IMG/VR virus record: IMGVR_UViG_3300005095_000015
Span: 31,676-95,675 of that record
Reading direction: 5' to 3' (one strand)
DNA from: a virus
Length of the DNA stretch: 64,000 bases
Part shown: in pieces, positions 811-41,759 of the stretch
How the letters are laid out: every line of letters starts with the position of its first letter
Numbering within the stretch: the stretch's first letter is position 1
Made by a program: the position numbers and the translations under genes
Notes under the pieces: generated by a model
The model's input: only the letters and a program-made list of their open reading frames with translations
The model's database searches: none
Told to the model about the DNA's origin: nothing

Positions 811-1089
811 GTGATGAGTAAAGCTAAAGAGCTACTTGAATCGATCAGCCGATTGAAACTAAGTCGTGATTTTGAGCTTGATATTGAGGAGTTGTTGAAA
901 GACTTAGCAGACGACACTGTTGATGAGCTAAAGCATCAAGAGTTACTTGATGATAACTCAGTAGACGAAATGGATCTTGAAAAAGCTTTTGAAGAGGTAA
1001 TAAGAGACAACACTGAAAAAATAACCAAAACTTTACTGAAAGGCGTCATCGAAATTTTATCGTCTGAGTACAAGATCAAGGTGGAGTAA
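811..1089 (+). CDS. Small acidic protein with MSKAKELLE leader, putative internal head protein
   Basis: GGAGG RBS; ATG at 814; shared N-terminal motif; directly upstream of the prohead protease. Confidence 0.75.
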   Translation: MMSKAKELLESISRLKLSRDFELDIEELLKDLADDTVDELKHQELLDDNSVDEMDLEKAFEEVIRDNTEKITKTLLKGVIEILSSEYKIKVE

Positions 1090-1119
1090 AACATTAAGAT
1101 AGAGATAGAGGGTAAAGCA

Positions 1120-2466
1120 ATGGCTGAGCGTTTAATTGACATCTTCCAACCAGAGATCAACTTTACGGTTGAGGAAGCCAGAGGCGAGGTTGACGGTAAG
1201 CACATACTTGCTAAGGTGAAGGGGCAGTTCTTTGTTCCTGAAGGTGTTTCTCGCAATCGTCGTTACTACTCAAAACGCCTCTGGGAGAAGGCAATAGCAA
1301 AGGTAAAGCCTAAACTAGAGAACAGAACCTTGTTTGGTACTATTGGGCATGAGCAGGAACTTACTGACACAGCTTTACTTGAAGGTAAAGTGAGTCACAT
1401 CGTTACCAACCTTTATATTGATGAGAAGGGGAGAGGTATTGGTGAGGCTCTTATCCTTAACACACCAGCTGGACGCATCCTAAACACCTTACTCAGGGCA
1501 GGTTCAAAGCTTTATGTTTCAAGCAGAGCTGAGGGTAAGTATAGTGGAACTAAAAATGGTGTTCCAGCTGTTGATGAGGATGCATACGACTTGAAAGGTT
1601 TTGACTTTGTTATAGATCCTGGCTTTCTTGAGGCTCAGCCCACTTTGGTTGAGTCTTTACAGAAGGATCTAAGTTACTGTTTTCCAAATCTTTGCAGAAC
1701 CAAAGACGAAAAACAATCTGAAGGAGGTAGTGAAATGCCTGACACCGCATTACTCGAAGCTAAGGTTAGGGAGAATTTAAAGCTACAGGAAGACTTGAAC
1801 AAGGCTTTAGAGCAGCTTGAGGAACTCAAGAAGCAAGTTGCAGTGCTTGAGAGCAAGAACAAAGAGCTTGAGAAAGAGGCTGAAGTGAAGAAAGAACTCG
1901 AAGCAAAGGTAAAAGAACTCTCTGACAAGCTTGAAGCTTACGAGAAGCTTGGCTCTGTTGATGAGTTAAGCAAAGCACTTGACGAAGCTAAGAAAGCTTT
2001 AGAAGCTTATAAAGAACTCGGTACTCCAGAGGAGATACAGGAAGCATTAGACAAGGCAAAAGAAGCACTTGAGGCTTACAAGGAACTTGGCTCACCTGAA
2101 GAGCTTGATGAGGCTATAGAGAAGGCAAGGGAGTTGCTTGAGAAGTACAAAGAACTCGGTACTCCAGAGGAGATAGAACAGGTATTTGAAAAGGCCGAGG
2201 TTCTTATCTCTGAGTCTCTTGAAGCAGCTAAGGAGAAGAAGATTGAAGAGCTGGCCAATGAGCTCGGTGTGGCTAAGGAGATGGTTGCTAAAGTGTATGA
2301 CAAGATGAGTGAGGGAGAGATTAGAGAGTTTTTCAAAGAGTTTTCTGAGCATCTCAAGATAAAGGAAAAGTACGAAAAGAAAGACGAAAGCAAAGAGCAC
2401 GAGCCAGCAAAGAAACCTTTATGGGAGAGCAGAGGCGAAAGACTTTTGTCTTATTTCAGCAAGTAA
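1120..2466 (+). CDS. Prohead maturation protease (T4 gp21-like) fused in frame to a coiled-coil scaffold
   Basis: gp21-type motifs NRRYY, GTIGH, VSH, VSSRAEG, FDFVIDPG; C-terminal E/K-rich coiled coil; upstream of the major capsid gene. Confidence 0.9.
   Translation: MAERLIDIFQPEINFTVEEARGEVDGKHILAKVKGQFFVPEGVSRNRRYYSKRLWEKAIAKVKPKLENRTLFGTIGHEQELTDTALLEGKVSHIVTNLYIDEKGRGIGEALILNTPAGRILNTLLRAGSKLYVSSRAEGKYSGTKNGVPAVDEDAYDLKGFDFVIDPGFLEAQPTLVESLQKDLSYCFPNLCRTKDEKQSEGGSEMPDTALLEAKVRENLKLQEDLNKALEQLEELKKQVAVLESKNKELEKEAEVKKELEAKVKELSDKLEAYEKLGSVDELSKALDEAKKALEAYKELGTPEEIQEALDKAKEALEAYKELGSPEELDEAIEKARELLEKYKELGTPEEIEQVFEKAEVLISESLEAAKEKKIEELANELGVAKEMVAKVYDKMSEGEIREFFKEFSEHLKIKEKYEKKDESKEHEPAKKPLWESRGERLLSYFSK
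1735..2466 (+). CDS. Nested in-frame scaffolding protein (internal start)
   Basis: AAGGAGGT at 1721-1728 precedes an in-frame ATG at 1735, at the protease/coiled-coil boundary. Confidence 0.7.
   Translation: MPDTALLEAKVRENLKLQEDLNKALEQLEELKKQVAVLESKNKELEKEAEVKKELEAKVKELSDKLEAYEKLGSVDELSKALDEAKKALEAYKELGTPEEIQEALDKAKEALEAYKELGSPEELDEAIEKARELLEKYKELGTPEEIEQVFEKAEVLISESLEAAKEKKIEELANELGVAKEMVAKVYDKMSEGEIREFFKEFSEHLKIKEKYEKKDESKEHEPAKKPLWESRGERLLSYFSK
1927..2200 (+). repeat. Four tandem ~23-aa (69-bp) repeats in the scaffold (LEAYKELGTPEEI...)
   Basis: Repeat visible in the protein; 27 identical bp at 2011-2037 and 2149-2175 (offset 138 = 2x69). Confidence 0.85.
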
Positions 2467-2481
2467 GAGTGGAGGTAGACG

Positions 2482-2832
2482 ATGAGTAAGGCTAAGAAGT
2501 TACTGGAGTTAATAGAGGGGTTATCTGAGAGTGAGAAAGTGGAATTAACCTTTTGGCGTTTATTGGAAGTAACTACTCCTGACGGTGTGCAGGTTGTCTT
2601 AGCAGTATACCGAGACAAACAAGGTAACAAGTATCTAAGCTGTTGTGGATGGGGTACGGACGAAGGTTACAAGCTAAGAAACGATTATCCTGAAGTCGAA
2701 GTAGTTTATGACGGCAAAGATGCTGACGGTGACGATCTTTACAAAGGAGAGAAAGGTATCTACTTTTCTAAGGTGAAAGATCCAAGGAAAGCAGCTAAGG
2801 AAGCCTTTGGTGGAAAGGCTAAGTATCTTTAG
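2482..2832 (+). CDS. Hypothetical protein with MSKAKKLLELIE leader, putative internal head protein
   Basis: GGAGGT RBS; shared leader; between scaffold and major capsid genes. Confidence 0.75.
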   Translation: MSKAKKLLELIEGLSESEKVELTFWRLLEVTTPDGVQVVLAVYRDKQGNKYLSCCGWGTDEGYKLRNDYPEVEVVYDGKDADGDDLYKGEKGIYFSKVKDPRKAAKEAFGGKAKYL

Positions 2833-2837
2833 TTAGA

Positions 2838-2867
2838 CTGCCTCCCTGCACTTCAGGGACTGAGCAG
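2838..2867 (+). promoter_or_regulatory. Stem-loop in the 5' leader of the major capsid gene
   Basis: TCCCTG/CAGGGA stem extended by CTGC/GCAG; no U-tract, so possibly an mRNA stabiliser or processing site. Confidence 0.4.
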
Positions 2868-2911
2868 AGAACTTCAATCCAAAACTAAGACTTGAGAGGA
2901 GGTTGTTAGCA

Positions 2912-4318
2912 ATGGCTGACATGGTAGAAAGCAGAGTTAAGAAGATGGAACAGGAGGCAGAGATACTCTACGAGCGTTATCGTCCACAGATGGACTTGTT
3001 TGAAAAATCCATTGTAGCTCAACTCAGAGGAGGTTTACAGCCTTACGATGTGTACGCATTAGGAAAGCAACTCGAGGCATTCGATGTTTACAAGCAAATT
3101 TGTGAAGAGGACGGTAATGTTAATCAGCTTGGTAGAATTCCTGACATTGCTTACGATGTCATCACAGTGGCTTACGGAACATCTGTAATACCTGTTATTG
3201 CTTCTGTTCAGCCTGTGGATGACGAGAGAGGAACTGTATACTTCAAGAATGTAAAGGCTGGAACTACGAAGGGTGCAGTAACTGAAGGTGAGACCTTAGC
3301 GTCTCCGACTTCTGGTGCAACTACGCCTTCTGGTTATGCTTCTAACTACATTGAGGGTGAGGTTGTAGGAACTGGAGATACCGCTGGAACCACAACCTTC
3401 AGTGCAACCTTAGCACAGGCACCTGTTAGGTCTCAGACTGTAAAGGTAACTGTTTCTGGAGTTGCTAATGTCTTTGGACAGGATGATGGAAACGGAAACA
3501 TCATAGGTGCAGGTGTAAGTGGTACTATTGATTACACTACTGGTGCAATTACTCTTAACTTCCTCAATGCTCCACCTGCAGGAGCACAGATTCTTGTAAG
3601 CTATCAGACCAACTACGAGCTCGCAGAGGACATTCCTTCCATCTCCACATTCTGGGACAGCACTTCTATAATGGCAAGGGTCTATGCACTCAAAGGTACA
3701 ATTGGAATGCTCCAGAGCTTCGGAATGAGAAAGAGGTTTGGAATTGTTGCTGAGGACGAGCTTGCAAAAGACCTTGTTGCAGAGATCAATGCAGAGGTAG
3801 GAGGAGACCTCATCAGAAAGCTCAATGCAAACGCACCTGGGTCTGTAACCTGGAGCAAAACTCCTCCAGCCGGTGTTTCCTACTATGAGCATAAGCAGAC
3901 CTTTAAGGATGCATTAGCAGATGTTGAGTCTACCTTAGTTGGACAGGCTGGAAGAGGTGTGATTAGTACTCTTATCGCTGGAAGAAATGTGGCTGCAGTA
4001 ATTCAGACTTTACCTGGATTTACTAAACTTACTGATGGTTCCACAATAGGTGCACACATCTTTGGAACGCTTGACGGAATGACAGTGGTAAGAGTAACTG
4101 ATGCATCTGTGCTTGATCCTAATAGAGCAATTGCAATCTATAAGGGAGCTAACCCATTTGAGGCTGCAGGAGTGTATGCTCCTTATATGCCACTTACAGT
4201 AACTACAACCTTACCTGCAGGAAAGAATCCTCTTGGTAACCAGAGAGCTGCTGCTGTTTGGGCTGGTGTTGAGGTGCTCGTACAGAACTTTGTTGTTGCT
4301 CTTGTTATGACTTCTTAA
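2912..4318 (+). CDS. Major capsid protein (T4 gp23-like) with an inserted beta-rich module
   Basis: gp23-like motifs SVQP, LVAEINAE, YKG..FEAAGVYAPYMPL; GAGGAGG RBS before ATG 2912; followed by a strong terminator. Confidence 0.93.
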   Translation: MADMVESRVKKMEQEAEILYERYRPQMDLFEKSIVAQLRGGLQPYDVYALGKQLEAFDVYKQICEEDGNVNQLGRIPDIAYDVITVAYGTSVIPVIASVQPVDDERGTVYFKNVKAGTTKGAVTEGETLASPTSGATTPSGYASNYIEGEVVGTGDTAGTTTFSATLAQAPVRSQTVKVTVSGVANVFGQDDGNGNIIGAGVSGTIDYTTGAITLNFLNAPPAGAQILVSYQTNYELAEDIPSISTFWDSTSIMARVYALKGTIGMLQSFGMRKRFGIVAEDELAKDLVAEINAEVGGDLIRKLNANAPGSVTWSKTPPAGVSYYEHKQTFKDALADVESTLVGQAGRGVISTLIAGRNVAAVIQTLPGFTKLTDGSTIGAHIFGTLDGMTVVRVTDASVLDPNRAIAIYKGANPFEAAGVYAPYMPLTVTTTLPAGKNPLGNQRAAAVWAGVEVLVQNFVVALVMTS

Positions 4319-4328
4319 TTCCTGACTT

Positions 4329-4362
4329 AACCCAGCCTGCCTAAAGTGGCGGGCTGGGTTTT
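4329..4362 (+). terminator. Rho-independent terminator after the major capsid gene
   Basis: AACCCAGCCTGCC-TAAAGT-GGCGGGCTGGGTT stem followed by T run. Confidence 0.85.
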
Positions 4363-4395
4363 ATGTGTTTACTCCAGCTATCTAAGGAGGTTACA

Positions 4396-4773
4396 ATGGC
4401 AAAGGTTAGAATTGTAAACAACACCAAAGGGCCTATCAGGATTAATAAGGTTGGGCGTTCTCCTCTGATTATTAGCCCAGGTGAGATGGTGGTAGATGTT
4501 AGTGTACTAGGACCTTACAATGACGCTCTTCTAGTTTGGCAAAAGGCAGGGGTTATACAGATTTTACCTGTTGAGGAAGAGATTGAGAAGTCAGCAGAAG
4601 TTAAAGTAAAAGAAGTGCCTACAAAGGTTGAAGCTGAAGCAGATGAAAAGGCAGAACAATCTGTAGCTGAAGAGCAAGAAGTAAAAGAAGAAGTTAAACC
4701 TGAAGAGGATAAAGAGGAAAAGAAGGAAAAACCTAAGAAGCGTGTAGTAAAACGCTCTAAGCGTAATAGATAA
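4396..4773 (+). CDS. Hypothetical head-associated protein with acidic linker and basic tail
   Basis: AAGGAGGT RBS before ATG 4396. Confidence 0.7.
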   Translation: MAKVRIVNNTKGPIRINKVGRSPLIISPGEMVVDVSVLGPYNDALLVWQKAGVIQILPVEEEIEKSAEVKVKEVPTKVEAEADEKAEQSVAEEQEVKEEVKPEEDKEEKKEKPKKRVVKRSKRNR

Positions 4774-4787
4774 AAGGGTAAAGCGAA

Positions 4788-5420
4788 ATGATCCCCCTTA
4801 CCGAACTTTGGGAAAGATTATTAGATGAGTCAGGACAGTACTTGTATGAGAACTTACCTGACACTACCTACGATCCAGCTAAGTTTGAACCTTTTGTTAA
4901 ACGGGTTCTGTCAATCTACAGCCAGTACCGTCCTATAGAGAGAACCTTCAATATAAGTGTAACAAACTTAAAGTTCGACTTTACTGATCACACTTACGGC
5001 GTACCTGAGTGGATCTCCAGAGCAGTTTGCGTTAGTTTTCCTTACGCACCGTTGCTTTGGAATATGCAAAAGAGCCCGGTAAGCCAACCACCTGAAATGC
5101 CTTGGACTTACAGAAAACCTATACTTTACACCTCAGCAAATGGAGAGTTTGAGGTCACAGCAGTCTATCACCACAGCATAGAGCAAGATACAGCTGGTAA
5201 CTATTACTTACCAACCATAGACTACAATGATGATTTATTCTTCAAACTCCTACTCGGTAAGTTTTTACAGAAGTTAGGTAGGTCAAGAAAAGCTTTCACC
5301 TTAAACGACTTACCCATAGCTTCAGATGCTGCTGATTTGGTAAGTGATGGTAGAGATTTGGAGCAGGAAGCATTGCAAGAGCTCGGTGAGCTTAGCAAGT
5401 GGTATTTAGCGTGGGGTTAA
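4788..5420 (+). CDS. Putative neck protein / head-tail adaptor (gp13-like)
   Basis: Position after capsid; C-terminal LGRSRKAF...LVSDG..LEQE resembles neck adaptors. Confidence 0.6.
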   Translation: MIPLTELWERLLDESGQYLYENLPDTTYDPAKFEPFVKRVLSIYSQYRPIERTFNISVTNLKFDFTDHTYGVPEWISRAVCVSFPYAPLLWNMQKSPVSQPPEMPWTYRKPILYTSANGEFEVTAVYHHSIEQDTAGNYYLPTIDYNDDLFFKLLLGKFLQKLGRSRKAFTLNDLPIASDAADLVSDGRDLEQEALQELGELSKWYLAWG

Positions 5421-5426
5421 GGTTAA

Positions 5427-6173
5427 ATGCATGCAAAAGAGGTTTTAGCATTGGTAGAAGCAATAAAACCTAAACTTACTCTTTACGATCTGTATAAAAA
5501 TACAGCTGAGTTTCAAAGAAGACAGCCTTCACGGATAGGAAGAGTTCCTCCGCCTCATCAGGAGCTAAGGATACTTGAATGGAGTGTAGTTCCTTTTGTG
5601 GGAACTAAAAGCTTGCTTGTTACAGCATTGGTTGAGCCAGGAACTCCAGGAAGACTTCCCAAAAAAGCAATCATCAAGTTTTACAATGTTGAATTTGCTG
5701 AAAATCCTGCTGAGGTAAGGCACGATCCCGACTGGTATAACTTTGTGAGCTATGTGAAGATTCCTGTTAGAACAGGTGGCTTTGTTACTGAGCCGCAGGA
5801 AGTAGCTTTCAAAAAGATAAATGCTAAGTGGTGTCCAGTACAGGTTAGATGTAACTGTGAAGATTTTTACTTCAGGTTTGGTTGGTACTTGAAAGAGTTT
5901 GGTTCTTTTTATGGTAAAGGACCTAAACCTTACCAGAGGAAAACTACCTGGTGGCCGTCTCAGAACAGATATCACATACCTGCAATGTGCAAGCATCTAT
6001 GGAACCTAGCTAGGGCTTTAGAAAGAGCAGGTGTACTTTATGGGTTACCACCAATTAGACACAATGCGCCACCACCTAATGTAAGCAAGCCTACTACGGG
6101 TGGTAAGGTTGAAATGAGTGCACAAGCGTTTGTTAAGTTTATGCAGAAGATTTTAAGCGGAGATGTTAAGTAA
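5427..6173 (+). CDS. SWIM zinc-finger protein with leader-like N-terminus
   Basis: CNCEDF...CKH SWIM signature; N-terminus MHAKEVLALVEAI. Confidence 0.7.
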   Translation: MHAKEVLALVEAIKPKLTLYDLYKNTAEFQRRQPSRIGRVPPPHQELRILEWSVVPFVGTKSLLVTALVEPGTPGRLPKKAIIKFYNVEFAENPAEVRHDPDWYNFVSYVKIPVRTGGFVTEPQEVAFKKINAKWCPVQVRCNCEDFYFRFGWYLKEFGSFYGKGPKPYQRKTTWWPSQNRYHIPAMCKHLWNLARALERAGVLYGLPPIRHNAPPPNVSKPTTGGKVEMSAQAFVKFMQKILSGDVK

Positions 6174-6577
6174 TGAGTGTTCTAGATGTGCTTGAGAATT
6201 ACTTAGAGATAGTAAGCAATGTTCTTACTAATACTTTTGGCAAGGTTTACGGAGTAGATTTTGAGCTGTATAGAGCTGATCCAGTTGATCCTTATACAGT
6301 ATATGGAGCTGATCCCGATGAAACTTCTTACAACCTTGTTACGACTGCTAAGGGAATACTTGTTCCTGCTTATGGCTTCGTTGATTATTCAAGTGAGGAA
6401 GCTGGTGTACTTGACGAGGCTTATCTCTATGCATCTGAAAACCTACAGCCTGGTGATATTGTGAAAATCCTGCGAAGTGATACAGCGACAAAGCGCTATA
6501 GGGTCTACGCAATGGAAGCTATTGGTATCACATCTCCTGTGATAAAGAGGTATAGGTTGAGACCTTTGGTGGATTAG
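6173..6577 (+). CDS. Putative head-closure/stopper protein
   Basis: Size, synteny, beta-rich with QPGDIV motif. Confidence 0.5.
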   Translation: MSVLDVLENYLEIVSNVLTNTFGKVYGVDFELYRADPVDPYTVYGADPDETSYNLVTTAKGILVPAYGFVDYSSEEAGVLDEAYLYASENLQPGDIVKILRSDTATKRYRVYAMEAIGITSPVIKRYRLRPLVD

Positions 6578-6581
6578 CACT

Positions 6582-7217
6582 ATGGCTGCAACTGTTGCGT
6601 ATGTAATGAAACATTGGGCAGATCTGGTTGCTGAGGTTGAAGGTGTTAAAGTGCTCTATGCTCCTGACCTTAGCCTGCCTGATCCTATAAAGAGTGTTCG
6701 CAGGTTGCAGGTTAAGACTATTGCTGGTGTACCTATGCTCAGCGGCGGTGAACCTTTTATCGTTTTTTCGAGGAGACCTCTTACAACCAGCGATACAGCA
6801 CAACCAAGAATATTCAAGGTGAGTGGTCCTGTTGACACCACAGGAAGTGTTGCTATCTACAAAGCAAAGATGGCAAGCTGTGATTTTCAGTGCCTTTATC
6901 TTAGCAAAGACATTCGCAAAGTTGAAGAGTTTGAGCTTAAGTACATCACTCAGTCAGGCATAACTGAGAAAATGACAATGGAAGTCGATTACGGAGATCC
7001 AATAGGTATTATCAACTACAGCTTGCAATGGAAGGAGATTGACGATTTGCAGATCACAGGTGATGGGTTAGATGTAAAAGCTTTGAGTTTTACCTGTACG
7101 GTAAGCGGTTGGTTTGTATCGGCTCCAGTTGATACAGGTAAGATAATAACTGAAATTGATATATTTTACAAAGACTATGTAACTGAAATTGACATAGACT
7201 ACGACATAGTCACTTAG
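6582..7217 (+). CDS. Putative tail terminator / tail completion protein
   Basis: Synteny upstream of the sheath; C-terminal 'GWF..PV..GKIITEI' resembles gp15-like proteins. Confidence 0.5.
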   Translation: MAATVAYVMKHWADLVAEVEGVKVLYAPDLSLPDPIKSVRRLQVKTIAGVPMLSGGEPFIVFSRRPLTTSDTAQPRIFKVSGPVDTTGSVAIYKAKMASCDFQCLYLSKDIRKVEEFELKYITQSGITEKMTMEVDYGDPIGIINYSLQWKEIDDLQITGDGLDVKALSFTCTVSGWFVSAPVDTGKIITEIDIFYKDYVTEIDIDYDIVT

Positions 7218-7230
7218 AGGAGGAGAGCTG

Positions 7231-7425
7231 ATGGCTAAAAAGAAGGCAAGAAAAGCCAAAGAAGTCAAACCTATAGTTCTCGTTTCAAGAGTAGATTACC
7301 CAATCAGATTATCACTTTCTGATGGAACTGCACTTATGCTCTCTCCAAGAGCAAAGGTAACACTTCCCAAGGGCACTGAACCTGCAGGGGAGTTACCAAG
7401 TGGTGTGATCAAGCTGAATGTGTAA
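7231..7425 (+). CDS. Small hypothetical tail-associated protein
   Basis: GAGGAGG RBS; compact ORF. Confidence 0.65.
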   Translation: MAKKKARKAKEVKPIVLVSRVDYPIRLSLSDGTALMLSPRAKVTLPKGTEPAGELPSGVIKLNV

Positions 7426-7447
7426 AACTTAGGTGGAGGTGAAAGAT

Positions 7448-9215: not shown

Positions 9216-9289
9216 GCCGGCGTAGCTCAACTTGGCAGAGCAGGGGATTTGTAATCCCTTGGGTGTGGGTTCAACTCCCTCCGCCGGCT
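9216..9289 (+). tRNA. trnT: tRNA-Thr(TGT), no encoded CCA
   Basis: Acceptor stem GCCGGCG/CGCCGGC, D-stem GCTC/GAGC, anticodon stem GGGGA/TCCCT with loop TTTGTAA (TGT at 9250-9252), TTCAA T-loop; one T-stem mismatch. Confidence 0.9.
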
Positions 9290-9315
9290 CTTAATCCAAG
9301 AGGAGGTGTTTAACG

Positions 9316-33637: not shown

Positions 33638-34216
33638 ATGGGTAAGTACTCTGTGCAGTTTTTCATGGGTGATTATCCTTACAGGCAAATGCTTGCAAAC
33701 GAAGCTGGTGTAGATGTTTATATCGAGCAGCACTTCAATAGTGGACCAAAAGAAGCCGATTACTGTATGGCAGTTGTTGCTCACAATGCAAGTGAAAAGT
33801 CAATTGAGATTGCTGAGACTTACGCTGACTTTGTATCTAATCGATTTAAGATACCGAAGTTTAAAGGTAACCCCGAAGGGGTTAAAAAATGCAAGTTCAG
33901 AGAACGAGGAGATTTCAATCTAAGATTTACCAAAATGCCAGCCGTCTTACTTGAACCTCTGTTCGTTTCAAATGCTGAGCATGTAAAGATATTAATTGAT
34001 AAACAGGGTTATTATGACTTAGCTGAGATTTTAGTAGATACAATTCGTAAACACTTTCCGAATGGAGCGAAGGTAGGTTTCTCTGTAGGGCATAAGTATA
34101 AACGCAAATCCCCTTTAGATCGTGGAGCACCAGTGAGGGGATACCCGGAATTCTTCGAGGCAGACATTGCTGAGTGGGTATTATGGATAGCTAGGAGTAT
34201 GCTTGAGTTAATCTAA
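33638..34216 (+). CDS. Endolysin: N-acetylmuramoyl-L-alanine amidase (Amidase_3), circularly permuted
   Basis: R..AN....D.YIEQHFNS, MPAVLLEPLFVSN; the usual N-terminal VGH...DRGA...E motif is at the C-terminus. Confidence 0.8.
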   Translation: MGKYSVQFFMGDYPYRQMLANEAGVDVYIEQHFNSGPKEADYCMAVVAHNASEKSIEIAETYADFVSNRFKIPKFKGNPEGVKKCKFRERGDFNLRFTKMPAVLLEPLFVSNAEHVKILIDKQGYYDLAEILVDTIRKHFPNGAKVGFSVGHKYKRKSPLDRGAPVRGYPEFFEADIAEWVLWIARSMLELI

Positions 34217-34227
34217 GGAGGAACATA

Positions 34228-35550
34228 ATGTCTATCCTTGCTCTTTCAACAGGAATTGAACTTGGACTTATCACCGAGCTTGCTAAACACGATAAGGTTT
34301 ATCTCTTTGCTGATTACATTTCCCCTTTTCCTGAGTTTGAAGAGCTTGCTATAGGCAGAAATTTACCTAACATAGAACCTATAACGACTTTAGATATAGA
34401 GCTTAAACAAATCAGCAAGGTAGTTGCTTTTGACTGTTACTTTGGATTCATTATAGAGTTGTTCAAAAGGTTAAATATTCCAACTTTTGGCGCTGGTAAT
34501 GAGGCAGAGCTGGAGAACAATCGTAAGTTACAAAAACAGCTCATACCTAATCCATCTCCTTACGAAGAGACAACCTTTGACAATCTAAAACCAGGTAAAG
34601 TCATCAAGGTTAATCCTATCTACAGAGGCTCTTTTGAGACTGCCGTGGTAAGAACACAGGCTGAGCTCGACTTCTTCAAGGAAATGCTTAAGCGTAATGG
34701 TGGACCTCTGGCTGAGGAGATAACCTATTTTGAAGAGGATGTTCTTGACATAGAATTTGAGATTGGAATAGATACTGTGTGCCTTGGTAATGGTTTAGAG
34801 TTTCCCTTGTTCTTTGGTATAGAGCAAAGCAAGAGCACCTATATGGCTGTGGTTATATCTGACTGGGAATCTTTAAGTAGATTCCCACTCTATAAAAACA
34901 CTTTTGCCTTACATGAAGTGCTCAAAAAGTACGGTTACAAAGGATTCTTCAGTACAGAAGAGATTGTAACAAAAAGCCGTCCATCTGAGTCTTACCTCAT
35001 TGATATTTGCATGAGAGCTCCTTTCCCACTTGGATGTTCTTACCCAAAGTTCTATAACAACTTTGCTAACATAGTACTAAAAGAGAAAAAGCCAAGAATA
35101 GATGCTAAGTTTGTAGTTTCTATTCCTCTAACCACCAGATTAGCAAACGACTACTTTGTGCCAGCTATCTTTAAAGACCAAACTATGTTTAACAAGTACA
35201 TAACTCTACAAACTTTCTACAAACCGAAGAAGCAACCAAGAAATGCCATTCTGCTCTATTACATAAAAGGTTATAGCAATATAGGTACAGTAACTTTGCT
35301 TTACAACGAGATTCCACCCGCAGACAGAATACTTGAGGATTATAACAAAGTAGTACAAACCATAGAAATCCCAGACTTGGTTGATGAAACAGGTACTATT
35401 GCTGAAAACTACGAATCGTTTATTCAAGCTCTAAACTTCTATGGTTATAATACTAAAAACAAAACTCAAATCTTTATTAACCAGCCAGAGGAGTCTTTCA
35501 GACCAGCTATTAAGGCAAAGGATGTATTAAAACTCCTTGAGATGAGGTAG
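34228..35550 (+). CDS. ATP-grasp ligase, PurD-like
   Basis: IPTFGAG.EAELE.NR..QK and YKGFFSTE.IV...YLID...R..FP resemble PurD segments. Confidence 0.6.
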   Translation: MSILALSTGIELGLITELAKHDKVYLFADYISPFPEFEELAIGRNLPNIEPITTLDIELKQISKVVAFDCYFGFIIELFKRLNIPTFGAGNEAELENNRKLQKQLIPNPSPYEETTFDNLKPGKVIKVNPIYRGSFETAVVRTQAELDFFKEMLKRNGGPLAEEITYFEEDVLDIEFEIGIDTVCLGNGLEFPLFFGIEQSKSTYMAVVISDWESLSRFPLYKNTFALHEVLKKYGYKGFFSTEEIVTKSRPSESYLIDICMRAPFPLGCSYPKFYNNFANIVLKEKKPRIDAKFVVSIPLTTRLANDYFVPAIFKDQTMFNKYITLQTFYKPKKQPRNAILLYYIKGYSNIGTVTLLYNEIPPADRILEDYNKVVQTIEIPDLVDETGTIAENYESFIQALNFYGYNTKNKTQIFINQPEESFRPAIKAKDVLKLLEMR

Positions 35551-35555
35551 GAAAT

Positions 35556-35873
35556 ATGGCTAAAAAGATAGTTCTGAACAAAAAACAAAAGCTATACGGT
35601 TACCTCAAAACTGGACATTATGTAAGGCAGAAGCTTGCAAGCGATAAAGGTTGAAAGGAATATAGAGTAAAACCCGTGAAGCTGGGTGTGAAACTTCTGC
35701 TTTGTGTAACAGATAAGAAAGGACCTGAAGGTGGCAAAACAAAAGCTGTAGCTATCTTAAGAGACATCAAAGTTGACCTGCGTAAGTATAGAAAGAAAGG
35801 CAAGAAGATGATAGCTAAGGCTATAAAGAAAGCGAGAAAACTCAAGAGAAAGGAAAGAAAGGAGGAATCATTT
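35556..35873 (+). pseudogene. Basic protein interrupted by an in-frame TGA (35652-35654), continuing in frame into the next gene
   Basis: ATG 35556, TGA 35652, GTG 35676 and ATG 35874 are all in one frame; DKG*KEYRVK. Confidence 0.45.
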
Positions 35874-36326
35874 ATGTCAAAAGCAGTACAATTGCTCGCT
35901 CTCGTCGAAGCTATACAGCAGAGCAAACTTAACGAGCTTTATTTTGCCTATGTCCTGCTTGAATCTTATCTATCTTACAAAAACTACTCACTCAGCAAGT
36001 TAGAACATGGAATAGAAATAAGAATAAACAAAGAAATAGACTTTAGTAAAGATCTTCAAGATGCTATAGAGGAAAACGAATTTAAACAAGTTGCTGAGAA
36101 GTTTCTAAGCAAAGGTATAGAGATTGGAAGTGAGGATTATGGGGTGCCTGAGCAGTGGCCAGGTGGAATCGTAACAAAAGGTAAAGCAATGTCAATTCAT
36201 TACCACTTAACAGGTAAAGGTAGGTATTTAGGCGAATATAAGTTGCAACTTAACTCCGTTCTTGTTAAAGCAAAGCCAGGAAAGGAGGTGAAAGAAGAGG
36301 AGCTGGAGAATCCATTTAAAGCTTAG
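35874..36326 (+). CDS. Hypothetical protein with MSKAVQLLALVE leader
   Basis: AAGGAGG before ATG 35874; shared leader. Confidence 0.7.
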   Translation: MSKAVQLLALVEAIQQSKLNELYFAYVLLESYLSYKNYSLSKLEHGIEIRINKEIDFSKDLQDAIEENEFKQVAEKFLSKGIEIGSEDYGVPEQWPGGIVTKGKAMSIHYHLTGKGRYLGEYKLQLNSVLVKAKPGKEVKEEELENPFKA

Positions 36327-36332
36327 CTCTTC

Positions 36333-37263
36333 GTGGAGGGAACAACATTGAAAATTGCTCCTGAACTCTGGCGTAAGGCTTTGCTCGTATGGAAGAAACA
36401 CTTAGAAGTTGAAGGTAAGCCTATAGGTAGAAAGAAGTTTGCTGAGGTTCTTGAGATATCAGAGCAGTTGGCAAGAGGATTGCTTTTCGCTATAGAGAAC
36501 AAGGAGATCATCGGCTTACAACCAACAGAAGAGCAAATTGCAGGGCTTAGAACAGCACTTGTTTTGGCTGACCTTCACATTCCGTTCCTTGATAGATCAG
36601 CCCTAAGTGCTGTATTTAGTTATCTTGAGGAGCAAAAAGTAAAACCTGATTTGATGGTGTTGCTTGGTGATGTGCTTGACTTCTTTAAAATTTCGAGGTT
36701 TCCAAGGGCAAAAGACAACACGAAGCCTTCGGTGCTTGAGGAGATAACCCAAACACAAGTCTTTCTTAAAGAACTAAGGGGTAAGTTCCCTGAAGCAAAA
36801 ATCATTTACTACGAAGGTAACCATGAACGCAGGTTGACTACTTATATAATGCAAAATGCAAGTGAAATATATGGAGTTAGTAATGAATTTATTGGAGGAA
36901 AAACTTGGGCTTAAAGAGTTAGATATAGAATATCGCTCATGCCCTTTTAGAATTGGTAAACTTTGGTTTCTTCACGGGCATGAGCGTCCTGGCGGAAGCT
37001 ACAACCCTGAATACATCACAAATGTTATTTGGAAGTATGTACATGATCACTTCATTGTAGGGCATTTCCATAGAAACCAGGAAAAGGTATTTAAACGCAT
37101 AGACGGAGAGCTTTACTGGGGTGGAGCGGTTGGGCATCTTGCTACCACTTTTGAGTATGCTATTTTGAATAACTGGACGCAGGGTTTCGCTATAGTTAAA
37201 TATGATGAGCAAGGCAGATTTAAGGCAGAAATAAAAACTATTTACAACGGCGAGGTTTACTAA
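36333..37263 (+). pseudogene. Calcineurin-like metallophosphoesterase split by a +1 frameshift near 36870
   Basis: DLH, GD, GNHE in 36333..36914; HGH and GHFH in 36856..37263. Confidence 0.75.
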
Positions 37264-37569
37264 ATGACTTACCTAACTAAAGAAGAACTCAAGCTACTTA
37301 ATAGAATAAGAAGCAAAGTGTTACGGATCATAGAAAAGGAGTTTGAAAAGGCTGGTATTGATCAGGCTTACTATGAGTTTACGCTGAAAGTGGATTTGCT
37401 GGAAAGCGCGACTTTTAGGAAGCTTGGAGAGATAATTTTGATTGATGATCATGCTAGATTTTGCGCCTTTTGCGGTAGAAAGACCTACTACTATGATTAC
37501 AATCTGCATGCTCCTATATGCGCGGAATGTTATAGCAAAATCAACAAAACTGCTCAGGAGGTGAGATAA
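37264..37569 (+). CDS. Zinc-finger hypothetical protein
   Basis: CAFC...CAEC. Confidence 0.6.
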   Translation: MTYLTKEELKLLNRIRSKVLRIIEKEFEKAGIDQAYYEFTLKVDLLESATFRKLGEIILIDDHARFCAFCGRKTYYYDYNLHAPICAECYSKINKTAQEVR

Positions 37570-37570
37570 G

Positions 37571-37798
37571 ATGAGTAAGGCAAGGGAGTTGCTGGAGCTT
37601 GTGGAACAAATGGGAGGAAGCGGGCAAGGTGTAGGTAATCCAAGGGTTGGAGACGGTGGAACAGATGTTTGTGTTTGTCCTAACTGCGGATACGAAGAAC
37701 CGCACGAAAAAGGAGTACCTTGCAATCAGAAAAAGTGTCCCAAGTGCGGAACACCAATGGTAGGTAAGCGAGAAAACAGCGAAGGAGGTGAGGAGTAA
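37571..37798 (+). CDS. Small Cys-rich metal-binding protein with MSKARELLELVE leader
   Basis: CVCPNCG...PH..GVPC...CPKCG. Confidence 0.75.
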   Translation: MSKARELLELVEQMGGSGQGVGNPRVGDGGTDVCVCPNCGYEEPHEKGVPCNQKKCPKCGTPMVGKRENSEGGEE

Positions 37799-38067
37799 TG
37801 AGCAGGGCAAAACAGATCTTAGACCTTTACGAGAAATGGGTTCAAAAGGTTAAGGTTAAGCATCATCCGCCTGAGGGGCTCTTCAAGGAAGGATCAGCCG
37901 AAGACATCGCTAAGTGGGCTAAGAAGACTCACAAGGACTTAAAGTCTGCTATGGCTGCACTTAACTTCTTTTTAAATCGTGGTGGAAAGGGAGTTGATCC
38001 TAAAATCAAGAAAAAGGTTGAAAAGGCTAAGGAGTTACTTAGGAAGATGTTTGGAGAAAAGGAGTAA
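37798..38067 (+). CDS. DUF3175-like protein with MSRAKQILDLYE leader
   Basis: PEGLF, SAM..LNFFLNRGG, EKAKELLR; family recognised from memory. Confidence 0.65.
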   Translation: MSRAKQILDLYEKWVQKVKVKHHPPEGLFKEGSAEDIAKWAKKTHKDLKSAMAALNFFLNRGGKGVDPKIKKKVEKAKELLRKMFGEKE

Positions 38068-38079
38068 TGGTCTCATTTT

Positions 38080-38113
38080 GCCCAGTCCCGCTCGCCGGGC
38101 TGGGTTTCTTTTT
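38080..38113 (+). terminator. Rho-independent terminator ending the late region
   Basis: GCCCAGTCC/GGGCTGGGT stem then TTCTTTTT. Confidence 0.8.
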
Positions 38114-38199
38114 AGTAAAAATTCTTAAAAATTTGGAAAACCATTAGCGATCATCAAATAATTCCCTGTAATTAAGTTTAATCAACTTTATTTCAGATT

Positions 38200-38240
38200 T
38201 TTGAGACTTGTATTTTTAAAAAATCTTATTATATTTAAAA
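38200..38240 (+). promoter_or_regulatory. Possible sigma70-type promoter for the AAA+/VWA genes
   Basis: AT-rich; TTGTAT...TATATT candidates; spacing is not ideal. Confidence 0.35.
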
Positions 38241-38268
38241 GTAAGAACAAAATAAGAGGAGGACAAAG

Positions 38269-39165
38269 ATGAATAACATAAAAGAGTTTTTACTAAAATT
38301 AGCTGAGGCTGGTTACAAGGCCTCGGCTAAAGATGCCCTGGTTACCCAGGGCTGGCTTCTGTTGAATTCGAAGCCAGCCCAGCGGGTGCCAGGGCTTTTA
38401 TTATTAGGCCCCGCCGGGGCTGGCAAGACATTCTTCGTAGAATGTCTTGCCAAGGCTCTGAGCAGAGCTCTACTTCCCTACCAGTGCCATTACGGTACTG
38501 GTAGGGAAGAGCTTCTCTATGACCTTGATGTTAAGGGGGTCATAGAGAAGCTCAGTGGAGGCAAGGGAGATCTTGTCTCCTATCTCAGGCCTGGAATTCT
38601 CCCCCAGGCCATTCAAAAGGCAAATGAAGCAGGGGGGCACCCTGTTTTTCTGCTTCTGGATGAGTTAGATAAAACTCATCCGGAAGTGGACGCCTTCCTG
38701 CTTACATTCCTCCAGAGCGGGAGGGTATACGACCCGCATCTGGGGGAATTTGTCCTGGAGGAGGGAGCGCTGCTTTATGTCTGTGCTACCTCCAACCAGG
38801 AGCGCCTCCTCTCGGAACCTCTCATGAGGAGGTTCCGGAGGGTATACTGCAAATACCCTCCGGCCGAGGTGGAGGCGGAGATTATTCAAAGGGACTGCCC
38901 AGAGGCTCACCCTGCTTTTATAAAGGGTTTGGTTTCTGTGGCGGGCTGGCTCCGGAAGAGGGAGGATATTATTAAGCCTCCTTCTACTCCGGAGCTTATA
39001 AACCTTGCCCGGGATGTTCTTCTGCTGGACAATCCCGAGGCAAGGGCAGAGGTAGTCCTGTCCTGGCTTTGTGCTTATGAAGAGGATAGAGCTATTTTGG
39101 AACAGAAGTATCCCCGTTCTTGGTGGGTGGGGATGTTGCAGAACAAGGATATAAGGGGGGTTTAG
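38269..39165 (+). CDS. MoxR-family AAA+ ATPase
   Basis: Walker A GPAGAGKT, Walker B LLLDELDK, TSN, LMRRF. Confidence 0.9.
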   Translation: MNNIKEFLLKLAEAGYKASAKDALVTQGWLLLNSKPAQRVPGLLLLGPAGAGKTFFVECLAKALSRALLPYQCHYGTGREELLYDLDVKGVIEKLSGGKGDLVSYLRPGILPQAIQKANEAGGHPVFLLLDELDKTHPEVDAFLLTFLQSGRVYDPHLGEFVLEEGALLYVCATSNQERLLSEPLMRRFRRVYCKYPPAEVEAEIIQRDCPEAHPAFIKGLVSVAGWLRKREDIIKPPSTPELINLARDVLLLDNPEARAEVVLSWLCAYEEDRAILEQKYPRSWWVGMLQNKDIRGV

Positions 39166-40938
39166 ATGAAGTTCTATGTGGCATGGGGTGAACAAAGCAA
39201 AAGCTATTTAAGTTACTCTAGGAAAATCTCTGGACAGGTTATAATTAACTCGTCAAGATTGAAAACTTTATGCAGATTTCTACCCATAGAAAAAGATTTT
39301 CTGTACAAAGGTGTTATTTATCATTGGGACGGAGAGAATTTGTGGCTACAGGGAAAATTTAAATGTGAAAATCCAGATTACTTTCGTGAATGCTGGGGTA
39401 TCGATGACCCTTGGGGATACAAGAAAGCACCCGTAGAATGTCGCACTAAGTGCCTCATACAAAGAATAACACAATCATTATTTACCTATCTCGCTAAGAA
39501 GGCCAAGGAATCATCCGGTTTCTCCTGTACTCCTGAGAAGGAGGAAAGAGCTAAACCGGATGATTCCTTACACTCTCCTGCCTCTGCTGAGGCTGAGGAG
39601 CGAGAACAGCAGCAAAGTCATTCCGACTGCTCCAAAGCTGAGGCAGAGGGTACTGAGGATGCTCTTGAAACTTTACAAAGCGATGCTCAGAGCTCCTCGG
39701 AAAGTGCTGAGTACTCCTCAGGGGAGGATACTCAGCGCCAGGAGGGTGAGGGCTCTGCGGAAGCCCCGGACGCAGAGTCGCCAGGGTCTAACAGCGCAAT
39801 CGAGGAAATCGACGCACTGAAGATCCTGGAAGAAATTCTATCCGAGGGCACCGAGGAAGAGAGTTGCCAGGTTCGCTCTTCCTCGGACAGTACAGAGGCT
39901 GATGGGTCGCCCGCCTCTGCAGAGGCTGGGGCTGGCAAGGAGAAAGATTCCTCGCTGGATTCCCGCTCTGCAGGTGCCAGTGAAAGCAGGCAACAGGAGT
40001 CCCAGAAAAAAGATGAACCTGGCCGGGGCTCCTCTCCAGACGAGGAAGTCCTCTCTGACGAGGAGAGGGCTTCCAAAATTCTGGAGGAGTTTATATCTGA
40101 AGATAAAACGACTGACTCTTTAGATATAAGCTCCTCTGAGTCTAAATCTCTCTGGGAAATCAGTTACAACCCGAAAGAGGATCAACACTCCTACGGCGGA
40201 GGTGGCGGACAGGCAGGAGCACTCACTGCCAAGGATTCCTCTACTGCCTCTGAAAAAGAAGTCCTTTATCTCTTGAGAAGATTTTTCTCTGAAATAGAAG
40301 ATCTTTTTAGAAAGAAAGAAGGTTTTGACCGTTGGGATGCCAAGAAAGTAATTCGCTCTCTCACTATGGAACCTGGAGAACTTCCAAAAGCAAAGTTCTC
40401 CAGACAGAAATCGAGGAAAATCTCTCTCTGGGTCGATGTCAGTGGTAGTGTAAGTCATCTTACCAAATTTATAATCACCCTAATTACTGCCGCTTGCAAA
40501 GATAACGATGTCCAAGTAGTTATCGGTTCAGAAGCTCACCCAGAGAAAGTTCTCCCAAGAACATTTATCCACCAGGACAAAGACTGGTGGGATATAAGAG
40601 GAATGTGGGAGGCAGAATACATTTATGACTTTCATCTCCAAGTAAAGAAATTTCTAAAAGATAATTCTCTTCCAGCTGGCAGCACCATAGTTATCTGGAG
40701 CGATTACATGGATATTAATACAACAGATCTTAAAGAACTTTCCCGTCTACTCAAACCTTACAAGGTAGTCTGGCTCTGCTCCCACAATGGCAAGGATCCT
40801 GACTATAGAGGTAATGAGTCTTTCAAGATTGAAAGGTTTGCTAAAAAAGAAGGACATTTATTCCTCTGGGGTATTGACAGTCTCCAGGGAATTAAAAAAG
40901 CAATAAAGCAACTAAACATAAGGAGGTATAGGAGATGA
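39166..40938 (+). CDS. VWA-domain protein with long acidic Ser/Glu linker (MoxR partner)
   Basis: MIDAS DVSGS, VIWSD, VVWL; low-complexity linker. Confidence 0.8.
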   Translation: MKFYVAWGEQSKSYLSYSRKISGQVIINSSRLKTLCRFLPIEKDFLYKGVIYHWDGENLWLQGKFKCENPDYFRECWGIDDPWGYKKAPVECRTKCLIQRITQSLFTYLAKKAKESSGFSCTPEKEERAKPDDSLHSPASAEAEEREQQQSHSDCSKAEAEGTEDALETLQSDAQSSSESAEYSSGEDTQRQEGEGSAEAPDAESPGSNSAIEEIDALKILEEILSEGTEEESCQVRSSSDSTEADGSPASAEAGAGKEKDSSLDSRSAGASESRQQESQKKDEPGRGSSPDEEVLSDEERASKILEEFISEDKTTDSLDISSSESKSLWEISYNPKEDQHSYGGGGGQAGALTAKDSSTASEKEVLYLLRRFFSEIEDLFRKKEGFDRWDAKKVIRSLTMEPGELPKAKFSRQKSRKISLWVDVSGSVSHLTKFIITLITAACKDNDVQVVIGSEAHPEKVLPRTFIHQDKDWWDIRGMWEAEYIYDFHLQVKKFLKDNSLPAGSTIVIWSDYMDINTTDLKELSRLLKPYKVVWLCSHNGKDPDYRGNESFKIERFAKKEGHLFLWGIDSLQGIKKAIKQLNIRRYRR

Positions 40939-41321
40939 GCAAGTGGACAGACTTTGAAGTTAAACCAGAAGAAAAGAAAGCTATTGAGGTTCCTTTAGTT
41001 CCTCCTGGAAGTAGGATAGGCGTAAAACTGGAATTCCAGAAACCAAATCGTTGGGGATTTGGCTTGAAGCAAGTTATAAGACAAGCTTGCAAGGGATTTC
41101 CTGAGTATTTTCTTCCACTTGCAAATCCGTTTGAAGTCACTACTACAGAAGGGGAAAAGATAACCATTGATACTCTCGGCAAGTGGGCTTTTGGTACCCC
41201 TGGTTGGGCAAGTAGGTTGCTATTCGAGGGTGGCGAGTCAAAAAAGATTGTCATCTATGTACCTAAGAATGTACCGCAAGAGCTTGTTTCGCTACTGCAG
41301 AAAGCAGTAGAAAGTTTGTAG
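40935..41321 (+). CDS. Hypothetical protein
   Basis: AGGAGGT RBS; intact ORF. Confidence 0.65.
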   Translation: MSKWTDFEVKPEEKKAIEVPLVPPGSRIGVKLEFQKPNRWGFGLKQVIRQACKGFPEYFLPLANPFEVTTTEGEKITIDTLGKWAFGTPGWASRLLFEGGESKKIVIYVPKNVPQELVSLLQKAVESL

Positions 41322-41339
41322 ACGAAAGGAGAAGTAAAG

Positions 41340-41759
41340 ATGACAAAAGCAAAAGAACTACTTGAAGTAATGCCTATCACAGAAATGGCAAACTTTGCAC
41401 AGCCTGATGTAGATATTCCAGGGTGTATTCACATTTGGTCAGTAGGTGATAAAAAGATTTATCACGAACCAAGAATAAAGTATTATCTTCAAAAGTGTGG
41501 AAAAGGAGAATCAGTAGAAGTTACTATAGAAGAAAACCCAAGAATAATTGGAAAAGCAAAACTCAGAAAAAAGATTAGAAAATTCCTTATGAGGTTTGTT
41601 AAAGAAACCAAACCACTTCTGATAAAGTACTGGCACGAAGCCATCTATATGACCAGATCTGAACAAAATCAACTTTTGGATGAAATAGAAAAATTAATAA
41701 ACAAAGTTTGGTTAAGAAGGAGGCTTAGCAATGCTTATACATCCAGATCCAGCAGTTAA
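41340..41759 (+). CDS. DUF4160-like protein with MTKAKELLE leader
   Basis: EMANF...IHIW...HEPRIKY; shared leader. Confidence 0.6.
   Translation: MTKAKELLEVMPITEMANFAQPDVDIPGCIHIWSVGDKKIYHEPRIKYYLQKCGKGESVEVTIEENPRIIGKAKLRKKIRKFLMRFVKETKPLLIKYWHEAIYMTRSEQNQLLDEIEKLINKVWLRRRLSNAYTSRSSS

Follow-up and report, generated by a model that had tools for sequence, protein, structure and literature searches.

In T4 and other T-even phages, a capsid-targeting sequence (CTS) is present on the internal proteins IPI, IPII and IPIII and on Alt, and the ip loci are polymorphic (Mullaney and Black, 1996; Repoila et al., 1994, as cited in PMC9026906, PMC3012670 and PMC12373910). In T4, the leader marks the proteins delivered to the host along with the DNA, and all three internal proteins of T4 disarm type IV restriction enzymes (PMC12373910). 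The cleavage rule of the T4 head protease gp21 is L/I-x-E (PMC9026906). Propeptides are also known from head and ejection proteins of phages phiKZ, 201phi2-1 and SPN3US, where they are cut by gp175- or gp245-type proteases (PMC9026906, PMC5694885, PMC7411985).

The genome of this study is that of an uncultured phage with a T4-type head. It is 95,675 bp long, 100% complete and has terminal repeats. The window, the whole stretch of DNA analysed, comprises 64,000 nucleotides (genome bases 31676–95675), and the motif scan was taken over the whole 95,675-bp genome. Coordinates are those of the window unless they are marked as genome positions.

As far as the T4 CTS is described in the sources cited above, the leader of this phage is similar to it in several respects. 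In both cases an N-terminal leader of about 10 residues is the only thing common to unrelated small proteins, the leader ends in what would be an L/I-x-E site of a gp21-type protease, the genes are found beside the head genes as well as elsewhere, and the cargo set is hypervariable among related phages. Different from the T4 CTS, however, sequence similarity between the leader and that of IPII/IPIII in the T4 record was not significant, the clade is far from Straboviridae, and protease and scaffold are encoded by one gene with a nested scaffold start. The numbers also differ, with 11–12 tagged genes in this phage and 56 in a relative, compared with the 3–4 given for T4 and about 10 across the T-evens in those sources. 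The general shape and the terminal x-E are all that it has in common with the T4 leaders, so it counts as an analogue of these or as very remotely related to them, and not as a sequence homolog. Similarly, T4 gp24, gp21, gp22, gp67 and gp68 have short N-terminal propeptides that end in [LI]-x-E (T4 record), of which that of gp24 (10 residues, ending in L-R-E) is, by eye only, the closest to the leader. These, however, are part of structural or core proteins, and unrelated cargo does not carry them as a portable tag. In phiKZ, 201phi2-1 and SPN3US, many proteins are packaged and many head-internal proteins are cut after Glu by a diverged gp21 homolog, but the propeptides are long, lack a single common short leader and are cut at S/A-x-E.

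The leader array and its statistics

Seven otherwise unrelated proteins of the window had been proposed, in a sequence-only reading of this DNA, to start with one shared leader. All seven N-termini were present, each with a Shine-Dalgarno site before it. For the first of these genes, the ATG at 814 is a likelier start than the GTG at 811. The motif search of the whole genome and its relatives that this reading had suggested identified four extra leader starts (genome positions 27372, 29674, 29908 and 31566), two of which are just upstream of the window, and the same arrangement in the relatives. The leader array is therefore bigger than that reading had stated, with 11–12 of the 141 genes, all for otherwise unrelated small proteins. 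The leader spans the 12–13 N-terminal residues, and its consensus is M-[ST]-K-A-x-x-L-L-x-[LIV]-[LIVM]-E. That of the gene starting at genome position 31566 is of the type M-S-K-V-E-E-L-L-S-L-I-F-E. The leader-bearing genes of the window and the genes discussed with them are as follows.

1..799, + strand: leader-bearing gene, 302 aa, 3' part in the window; start 109 bases before the window (genome 31566), N-terminus matched by an out-of-sample PSSM, GGAGG upstream, de novo cluster member
814..1089, + strand: leader-bearing gene for a very acidic 91-aa protein (net charge -12), adjacent to and upstream of the protease gene; de novo cluster member
1120..2466, + strand: prohead protease (Peptidase_S77, gp21 type, residues 28–167) fused to a coiled-coil scaffold; protease domain from 1120 to about 1730; Pfam PF03420, E 2.1e-8
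1735..2466, + strand: probable nested scaffold-only gene, 243 aa; in-frame internal ATG after GGAGG
2482..2832, + strand: leader-bearing gene for a 116-aa protein, flanked by the scaffold and capsid genes; de novo cluster member, no family match
2912..4318, + strand: major capsid protein, gp23 type; Pfam PF07068, E 6e-17
5427..6173, + strand: leader-bearing gene for a basic 248-aa protein that contains a CxC...CxH pattern; leader one residue shorter than the others, Shine-Dalgarno site
35874..36326, + strand: leader-bearing gene, 150 aa, second cluster; ATG at 35874 with a strong Shine-Dalgarno site, de novo cluster member
37571..37798, + strand: leader-bearing gene, 75 aa, zinc-ribbon type; weak Pfam zinc-ribbon matches
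37798..38067, + strand: leader-bearing gene, 89 aa, C-terminal half of DUF3175; Pfam PF11373, E 4.6e-10
38269..39165, + strand: AAA_5 (MoxR-like) ATPase with a borderline leader-like N-terminus; Pfam AAA_5, E 1.8e-14
41340..41759, + strand: leader-bearing gene, 139 aa, basic; de novo cluster member, no family match

The pattern [STG][KR]A..[LI]L, which was chosen post hoc, was found at residue 2 of 9 of the 141 N-termini and was absent from all 28,397 internal positions (Fisher p 1e-21). A motif no more frequent at N-termini than expected had been named beforehand as a possible refutation; the frequency found was far above chance. Moreover, de novo all-against-all comparison of residues 2–13 yielded 37 pairs with a score of at least 20, which formed one 11-member cluster, compared with means of 3–4 and a maximum of 9 in the controls (internal windows and column shuffle). 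The AAA_5 ATPase was in the cluster at the threshold of 20, but it is probably not a true leader gene and was probably included by chance. The gene at 5427, whose leader is the shorter one, fell outside the cluster.

The codons of the leaders diverged, with 19–78% nucleotide identity over 36 nt and Leu encoded by CTT, CTA, CTG, TTA and TTG. Conservation is thus at the peptide level and not at the DNA level, and the leader is under peptide-level selection. The remaining parts of the proteins (residue 16 to the end) had no BLAST similarity among them, with a best E of 0.007 in a 12-sequence database. This result bore out the claim that the cargo is unrelated and ruled out paralogy of the cargo proteins. 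The leader was carried by 7 of 17 genes of the head module and by 4 of 124 genes elsewhere (p 2.6e-5). These latter four are located 30 kb away from the head module, among genes of uncertain timing, and the promoter motifs listed for the genome did not settle the timing of this second cluster.

Head protease, scaffold and the end of the leader

As had been noticed from the sequence, a gp21-type protease is encoded here. Its His77 and Ser134 were invariant in the alignment with relatives, and the scaffold part of the same gene contained YKELG[TS]PEE repeats and, at its C-terminus, a conserved ESR..RL...FSK motif. The internal ATG at 1735 is the probable start of a nested scaffold product, as its Met was aligned in 10 of 10 lineages and a Shine-Dalgarno site, encoded by differing residues, was found in 8 of 10. 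In lambda C/Nu3 and P2 gpO, protease and scaffold also come from one reading frame. Similar to these, the protease here is N-terminal and the scaffold C-terminal in one ORF, and an internal start with a ribosome-binding site predicts a scaffold-only product. Different from these, the protease is of the S77 type, compared with S49 for lambda C and the gpO type for P2. The predicted maturation site of the capsid protein is I63-C64-E65, of which Glu65 was invariant in the relatives; the site of T4 gp23 in the T4 record, L63-T64-E65, has the same residue number. A T4-type portal was matched weakly (Portal_T4).

Among 78 leaders from 9 lineages, a hydrophobic residue was found at position 7 in 100%, at position 8 in 81% and at position 11 in 82%, and Glu was found at residue 12 (54%) or residue 13 (36%). 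A [LIVMFY]-x-E motif ending at residues 9–15 was present in 68 of the 78 leaders and in 78 of 328 other proteins (24%). The Glu/hydrophobic statistic is partly circular, because the clusters were defined on residues 2–13. With its conserved [LIVMFY]-x-E at residues 10–13, the end of the leader agrees in sequence with the [L/I]-x-E site of T4 gp21.

It had also been claimed that the leader mimics a repeat of the scaffold, and this part fared less well. The 17-bp identity between 2122 and 37577 is exact, but it is one of about 20 repeats of at least 17 nt in the genome and reaches chance level alone, and the likeness to the KARELLE repeat was not conserved in relatives. As a mimic of the scaffold repeat the leader was rejected, since its own-lineage rank was poor and no better than for the repeats of other lineages (permutation p 0.06). 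Comparison of the leaders with the N-terminus of the nested scaffold gave p 0.005, with lineages that lack independence, and the scaffold N-terminus of this phage itself was not more leader-like than the average scaffold window. Scaffold mimicry is kept as a weak lead.

Related phages and their cargo proteins

Relatives with 30–78% capsid identity had the same arrangement with lineage-specific leader types, and every lineage found had its own leader type on many small ORFs of the head module. In three cargo families, the leader type of an ortholog was that of its own genome (own lineage at rank 1 in 11 of 12 cases). This speaks for co-evolution of the leader with a partner that the phage encodes. 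For instance, orthologs of the 5427 gene in lineages L001, L022 and L027 had the canonical leader of their lineage. Those of the 37571 gene (L019, L022, L024 and L027) are located just 3' of the capsid gene with the leaders of their own lineages, and homologs of the DUF3175 gene at 37798 (L001, L022 and L024) are in the head module, also with the own lineage's leader. The cargo set as a whole was mostly replaced between relatives. In a relative of 237 kb, the leader was found on 56 of 403 genes, including 37 of the 76 genes around its protease, and on 55 unrelated cargo families. Fifty-six cargo species in one capsid would far exceed anything documented.

Among cultured phages, the highest capsid identity was 52% (Kleczkowskaviridae). 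T4 was absent among the tblastn matches listed (best 25 of 162 records), and megablast of the head region against cultured phages yielded no match. Among the papers searched, none dealt with the leader or with processing in Kleczkowskaviridae. Rhizobium phage RHph_TM30 is a cultured carrier, with five leader ORFs at positions 75828, 82018, 135143, 138478 and 197990–198307 of its record. The capsid protein of phage YerA41 is 30% identical to that of this phage, and its leader differs in sequence, with K-F-E in front of the predicted cut. Five YerA41 ORFs start with this leader; all are late genes, and the products of all five were found by LC-MS/MS in purified particles (PMC7354516 Table S2). 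The particle list contains 63 proteins, including polymerases (PMC7354516), so some of its entries may be carry-over.

Searches with Pfam, PHROGs and PADLOC for cargo function identified only DUF3175, weak zinc-ribbon matches and phrog_1053, and the protein of 814..1089 had neither a Pfam nor a PHROG match. Four domain labels had been put on the cargo in the sequence-only reading. That of DUF3175 was confirmed. For the Cys-rich label, Pfam weakly supported a zinc ribbon. The SWIM label had behind it a CxC...CxH pattern seen by eye, with no Pfam match even at E 5, and the DUF4160-like label was not reproduced with Pfam. The phrog_1053 family, of unknown function, matched the basic tail of the protein encoded at genome position 29908. 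In the AlphaFold model of this protein, the leader is a separate helix (residues 3–12) that is followed by a loop and a confidently folded domain. Foldseek with this model against BFVD yielded no match at E ≤ 0.001. Relatives of the protein numbered 351 in an exhaustive profile search, compared with only 3 by word-based search. The family was present in all lineages at the same place, and in its fused long forms the leader is located at the far N-terminus, not beside the domain.

Possible roles of the leader

The leader is probably a capsid-targeting propeptide of the T4 kind that is clipped by the head protease, and the array is most likely an enlarged version of the T4 tag by which proteins are loaded into the capsid and then clipped. 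The sequence-only reading of a T4-like leader cut after Glu by a gp21-type protease was upheld in every comparative test run, apart from its scaffold mimicry, which is weak. Weighing against it are the four leader genes 30 kb from the head module, the 56 cargo species that the 237-kb relative would have to pack and the dissimilarity to the IPII/IPIII leader. From these comparisons we infer docking, cleavage, packaging and injection in the following order. The short amphipathic helix would dock a newly made protein on the assembling prohead core, which would consist of the protease-scaffold fusion and the scaffold-only product of the nested start. The capsid shell would then close around the core, and the S77 (gp21-type) protease would cut after the Glu of [LIV]-x-E and set the cargo free within the head. 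Part of the cargo would finally go into the next host along with the DNA. The cargo proteins may be injected effectors with putative anti-defence roles. By analogy with T4 gp67 and gp68, some of them may be core or assembly proteins.

That the latter holds for most of the tagged proteins is unlikely. The leader would then still be a prohead-core address with a cleavage site, and the proteins, similar to gp67 and gp68, would mainly be degraded and expelled before DNA packaging and not be delivered. Seven of the tagged genes are grouped around those of the portal, protease and capsid, the very acidic 91-aa protein encoded at 814 is gp67-like, and the constant place of the genome-29908 family is that expected of a structural part. 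However, most of the cargo is replaced completely between relatives, which is not typical of assembly factors. Several cargo proteins also consist of a compact domain of the zinc-ribbon or DUF3175 type that lacks clusters of internal [LIV]-x-E, and the YerA41 counterparts occur in mature particles.

Given that the concerted evolution within genomes needs only some common phage-encoded partner, the leader could also be a recognition peptide for another one, such as a RiPP-like modifying enzyme, a chaperone or a hub protein, with no capsid role. We consider this improbable, since the conserved Glu in [LIV]-x-E, the location in the head module and the virion data of YerA41 all favour the head protease as the partner. 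A radical-SAM/SPASM-linked tag was also checked and was not supported: the 100% complete genome had no SPASM match, and its sole radical-SAM match (window 52080–52262) is in a preQ cluster.

Still less probable is an N-terminal stability or degradation signal for small accessory proteins, for example of the ClpX type. The N-motifs recognized by ClpX, such as those of lambda O and Dps, can be short, partly basic and hydrophobic, and the leader type of lineage L003 is loosely similar to the lambda O N-terminus. Such a signal, however, leaves unexplained the conserved Glu12/13, the clustering in the head module, the lineage-specific leaders across surely different hosts and the presence in YerA41 particles. 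Finally, an effect of mRNA or start-codon context, in which A-rich second and third codons aid initiation, or chance among K/E/L-rich N-termini, is effectively refuted, although M-S-K starts are frequent in the genome without the leader too (four other genes), because the conserved Leu and Glu are encoded by freely varying codons, the column shuffle retains position-specific composition yet yields about 4 pairs compared with the 37 observed, and the hydrophobic and Glu pattern persists in other lineages whose residues at positions 2–5 are wholly different.

With the leader as a capsid-targeting propeptide, a wider proposal can be put forward tentatively, although we regard it as somewhat less likely to hold than to fail. 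In a broad clade of phages with T4-type heads, mostly uncultured and including Kleczkowskaviridae and YerA41-like phages, a lineage-specific N-terminal label that co-evolves with the phage's own protease-scaffold may direct into the capsid, for co-injection, a large and rapidly changing arsenal of small proteins unrelated to each other. This arsenal would comprise 11–12 proteins in the present phage (96 kb) and about 56, or 14% of the genes, in the 237-kb relative, and in phages with modified DNA many of the proteins would be inhibitors of modification-dependent restriction. The concerted evolution of the tag within genomes provides a clean handle on its putative prohead receptor. If the T4 logic holds here, a simple N-terminal signature would reveal, from sequence alone, which proteins are injected by a large group of phages that is nearly all uncultured. 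It would also provide hundreds of unrelated candidate anti-defence or host-takeover proteins, as well as a natural tag, tunable by lineage, with which foreign proteins could be packed into capsids other than that of T4.

Leader genes and the head module

The seven N-termini that a sequence-only reading had taken for a common leader were all present in the genome, each with a Shine-Dalgarno site before it. The leader is an N-terminal helix of about 12 residues with the consensus M-[ST]-K-A-x-x-L-L-x-[LIV]-[LIVM]-E, ending in hydrophobic-x-Glu; the remainder of each protein is termed cargo here. A motif search of the whole genome, which that reading had suggested and in which every possible start was scanned, added four leader genes. 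The window covers bases 31676-95675 of the virus record (95,675 bp; estimated completeness 100%), in which a single strand bears every gene. The two ends of the record (genome 1-91 and window 63910-64000) are exact direct repeats of 91 bp, in keeping with a complete, terminally repeated genome.

Added leader genes and neighboring features (genome coordinates refer to the whole record)
Genome 27372: added leader gene, between the putative terminase and portal genes
Genome 27872: weak match to the T4 portal, upstream of the window
Genome 29674: added leader gene
Genome 29908: added leader gene
Genome 31566: added leader gene, identical with the 5'-open ORF at window 2..799
Window 1120-2466: Peptidase_S77 (gp21-type) protease fused to a coiled-coil scaffold
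Window 2912-4318: capsid protein, gp23-type
Window 38269-39165: AAA_5 (MoxR-like) ATPase directly after the second leader cluster, with a borderline leader-like N-terminus

At window 5427, a 248-residue protein has a leader one residue short of the usual length; it was counted because its ortholog in L001, the closest relative (capsid protein 78% identical), has a canonical leader. The ATPase was treated as a chance inclusion. The head module (terminase through head completion) had a leader on 7 of its 17 genes vs 4 of the 124 elsewhere (p 2.6e-5). The four distant genes (window 35874, 37571, 37798, and 41340) form a second cluster, and in other lineages the orthologs of window 37571 and 37798 immediately follow the capsid gene. 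The DUF3175-like protein of this cluster (window 37798-38067) also contains a second leader-like peptide at residues 73-84, near its C-terminus, which was among the top three internal PSSM matches in the whole proteome. Of the other cargo labels in the sequence-only reading, DUF4160 failed to reproduce and SWIM had no Pfam match, its sole basis being a CxC...CxH pattern seen by eye.

Glu65 of the capsid protein, in I-C-E, was invariant, and its residue number is that of the T4 gp23 site. At the protease-scaffold junction, an in-frame internal ATG preceded by GGAGG was found at window 1735. Its Met was aligned in 10 of 10 lineages and its Shine-Dalgarno site was kept in 8 of 10, encoded by differing amino acids and codons. 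As judged from sequence, this is probably a nested scaffold gene, predicted to give a scaffold-only product. In lambda, the C/Nu3 region likewise uses an internal start to make its scaffold alone.

Several other features were noted. A tRNA-Thr gene (anticodon TGT, window 9216-9290) lies between the putative genes for tail sheath and tail tube, and two large genes (window 20314 and 28041) share a 54-bp exact repeat. Two elements, TTTCATCTCTAA and, about 12 nt further on, GGTTATAAT, make up an intergenic motif that recurs at window 45769, 51036, 52590, and 60441 and at genome 3776 and 9010, and likely represents a sigma-70-type early or middle promoter family. A second motif, (T)TCCGCTTTTCTTAGTGAA, precedes genes for packaging, head, and tail (genome 24710 and 30795; window 16708 and ~46020) and is a candidate late promoter; none was seen ahead of the second leader cluster.

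Chance, nucleotide, and scaffold likeness

That the motif is commoner at N-termini than expected by chance was borne out. In its simple form, it began at residue 2 in 9 of 141 N-termini vs 0 of 28,397 internal positions. When residues 2-13 of all 141 proteins were compared pairwise with no motif imposed, 37 pairs scored at least 20, vs a mean of 3-4 and a maximum of 9 such pairs in the controls (protein-internal windows or shuffled columns, the latter preserving the general M-S-K bias of N-termini). No mutual similarity among the leader proteins was found past residue 15. The leader codons differed synonymously, with nucleotide identities of 19-78% over 36 nt; it is therefore the peptide, rather than DNA or RNA, that is under selection.

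The leader had also been proposed to mimic the scaffold repeat, which did not hold: its likeness to the repeat lacked lineage specificity (p 0.06). Leaders resemble K/E/L-rich scaffold helices generally, and their likeness to the scaffold N-terminus was marginal. The scaffold and window 37577 do share 17 identical bp, but this was one of about 20 repeats of such length. A radical-SAM/SPASM enzyme does not fit as the partner that recognizes the leader, as the SPASM domain is absent from the complete genome, whose single radical-SAM match lies within the preQ cluster.

Leaders of related phages

About 20 related viral contigs were gathered by capsid-protein and protease-scaffold alignment searches. 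Among the matches listed, the nearest cultured phages by capsid were Kleczkowskaviridae Rhizobium phages (52%), E. coli phage IME392 (37%), and YerA41 (30%). Every lineage had many small ORFs with a common N-terminal leader around its own protease, and the leader type varied by lineage.

Leader types (L numbers denote related contigs)
M-S-K-A: analysed phage, L002, L025, L030, and RHph_TM30
M-G-K-F: L020
M-x-L-I-x-E-L: L022, L024, and L027
Further types: L028 and L003

In the 78 pooled leaders of 9 lineages, a statistic that is partly circular because the clusters had been defined on residues 2-13, hydrophobic residues occupied positions 7, 8, and 11 in 100, 81, and 82%, respectively, Glu was at position 12 (54%) or 13 (36%), and 87% had a hydrophobic-x-Glu ending at residues 9-15 vs 24% of other proteins. 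The hydrophobic/Glu pattern persisted across leader types differing at positions 2-6. In the complete 88.7-kb genome G003, 8 of about 10 leader genes were no more than 7 kb from the protease. In G001 (237 kb, 95% complete), the strict motif was found in 56 of 403 genes vs 0.11% of internal positions, and 37 of the 76 genes around the protease had a leader; by BLAST, the G001 cargo fell into 55 unrelated families.

Comparison of the leader with genome and cargo is the most informative test. For three cargo families (genome 29908, the zinc-ribbon type of window 37571, and the DUF3175-like type of window 37798), several lineages had an ortholog. The leader of an ortholog was, in 11 of 12 cases, closest to the leaders of non-homologous tagged proteins in its own genome, which excludes vertical descent of the cargo as the source of leader likeness. 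The leaders within a genome must therefore have evolved in concert, with one shared partner encoded by the phage. For the genome-29908 family, an exhaustive profile search returned 351 cluster representatives, of which most normal-length members begin with a leader-like helix. In fused forms of 540-640 residues (P0013, P0020, P0030, P0045, and others), the head-protein domain is C-terminal and the leader starts an N-terminal region of about 340 residues. With the leader thus at the far N-terminus, away from the conserved domain, it is a positional N-terminal module. In line with such a module, AlphaFold predicts residues 3-12 of the genome-29908 protein as a separate helix of modest confidence, followed by a loop, a confidently folded domain (residues 19-128), and a basic C-terminal tail.

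Parallels with T4 and YerA41

The capsid-targeting sequence of T4, comprising 10 N-terminal residues, is both required and sufficient for loading IPIII or foreign proteins into the prohead core, is cut off by gp21 after L/I-x-E, and is the sole common feature of T-even internal proteins (PMC9026906, PMC3012670, PMC12373910). IPII, IPIII, gp22, gp21, and gp24 in the T4 record all start with a short peptide ending in [LI]-x-E; among these peptides, that of gp24 is closest to the present leader. YerA41 has a leader of its own, ending in K-F-E, on five ORFs that lie upstream of its portal gene; these were matched by length and order to genes 004, 005, 006, 008, and 009 of Table S2 (PMC7354516, 2020). 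All five are late genes with products detected by LC-MS/MS in purified particles, in a list of 63 proteins that includes replication enzymes and whose N-termini are unmapped (PMC7354516). Two small unannotated ORFs of IME392 (L060; 8185-8439 and 12807-13094) share an [LV][LM]..V-D-E-[AS] N-terminal motif with its capsid protein, possibly a leader system in a tractable coliphage.

Overall, the leader likely serves in T4-like capsid targeting and is likely clipped by the protease. We infer that the cargo may be injected; by analogy with T4, it is an attractive guess that the cargo proteins would act as inhibitors of modification-dependent restriction.
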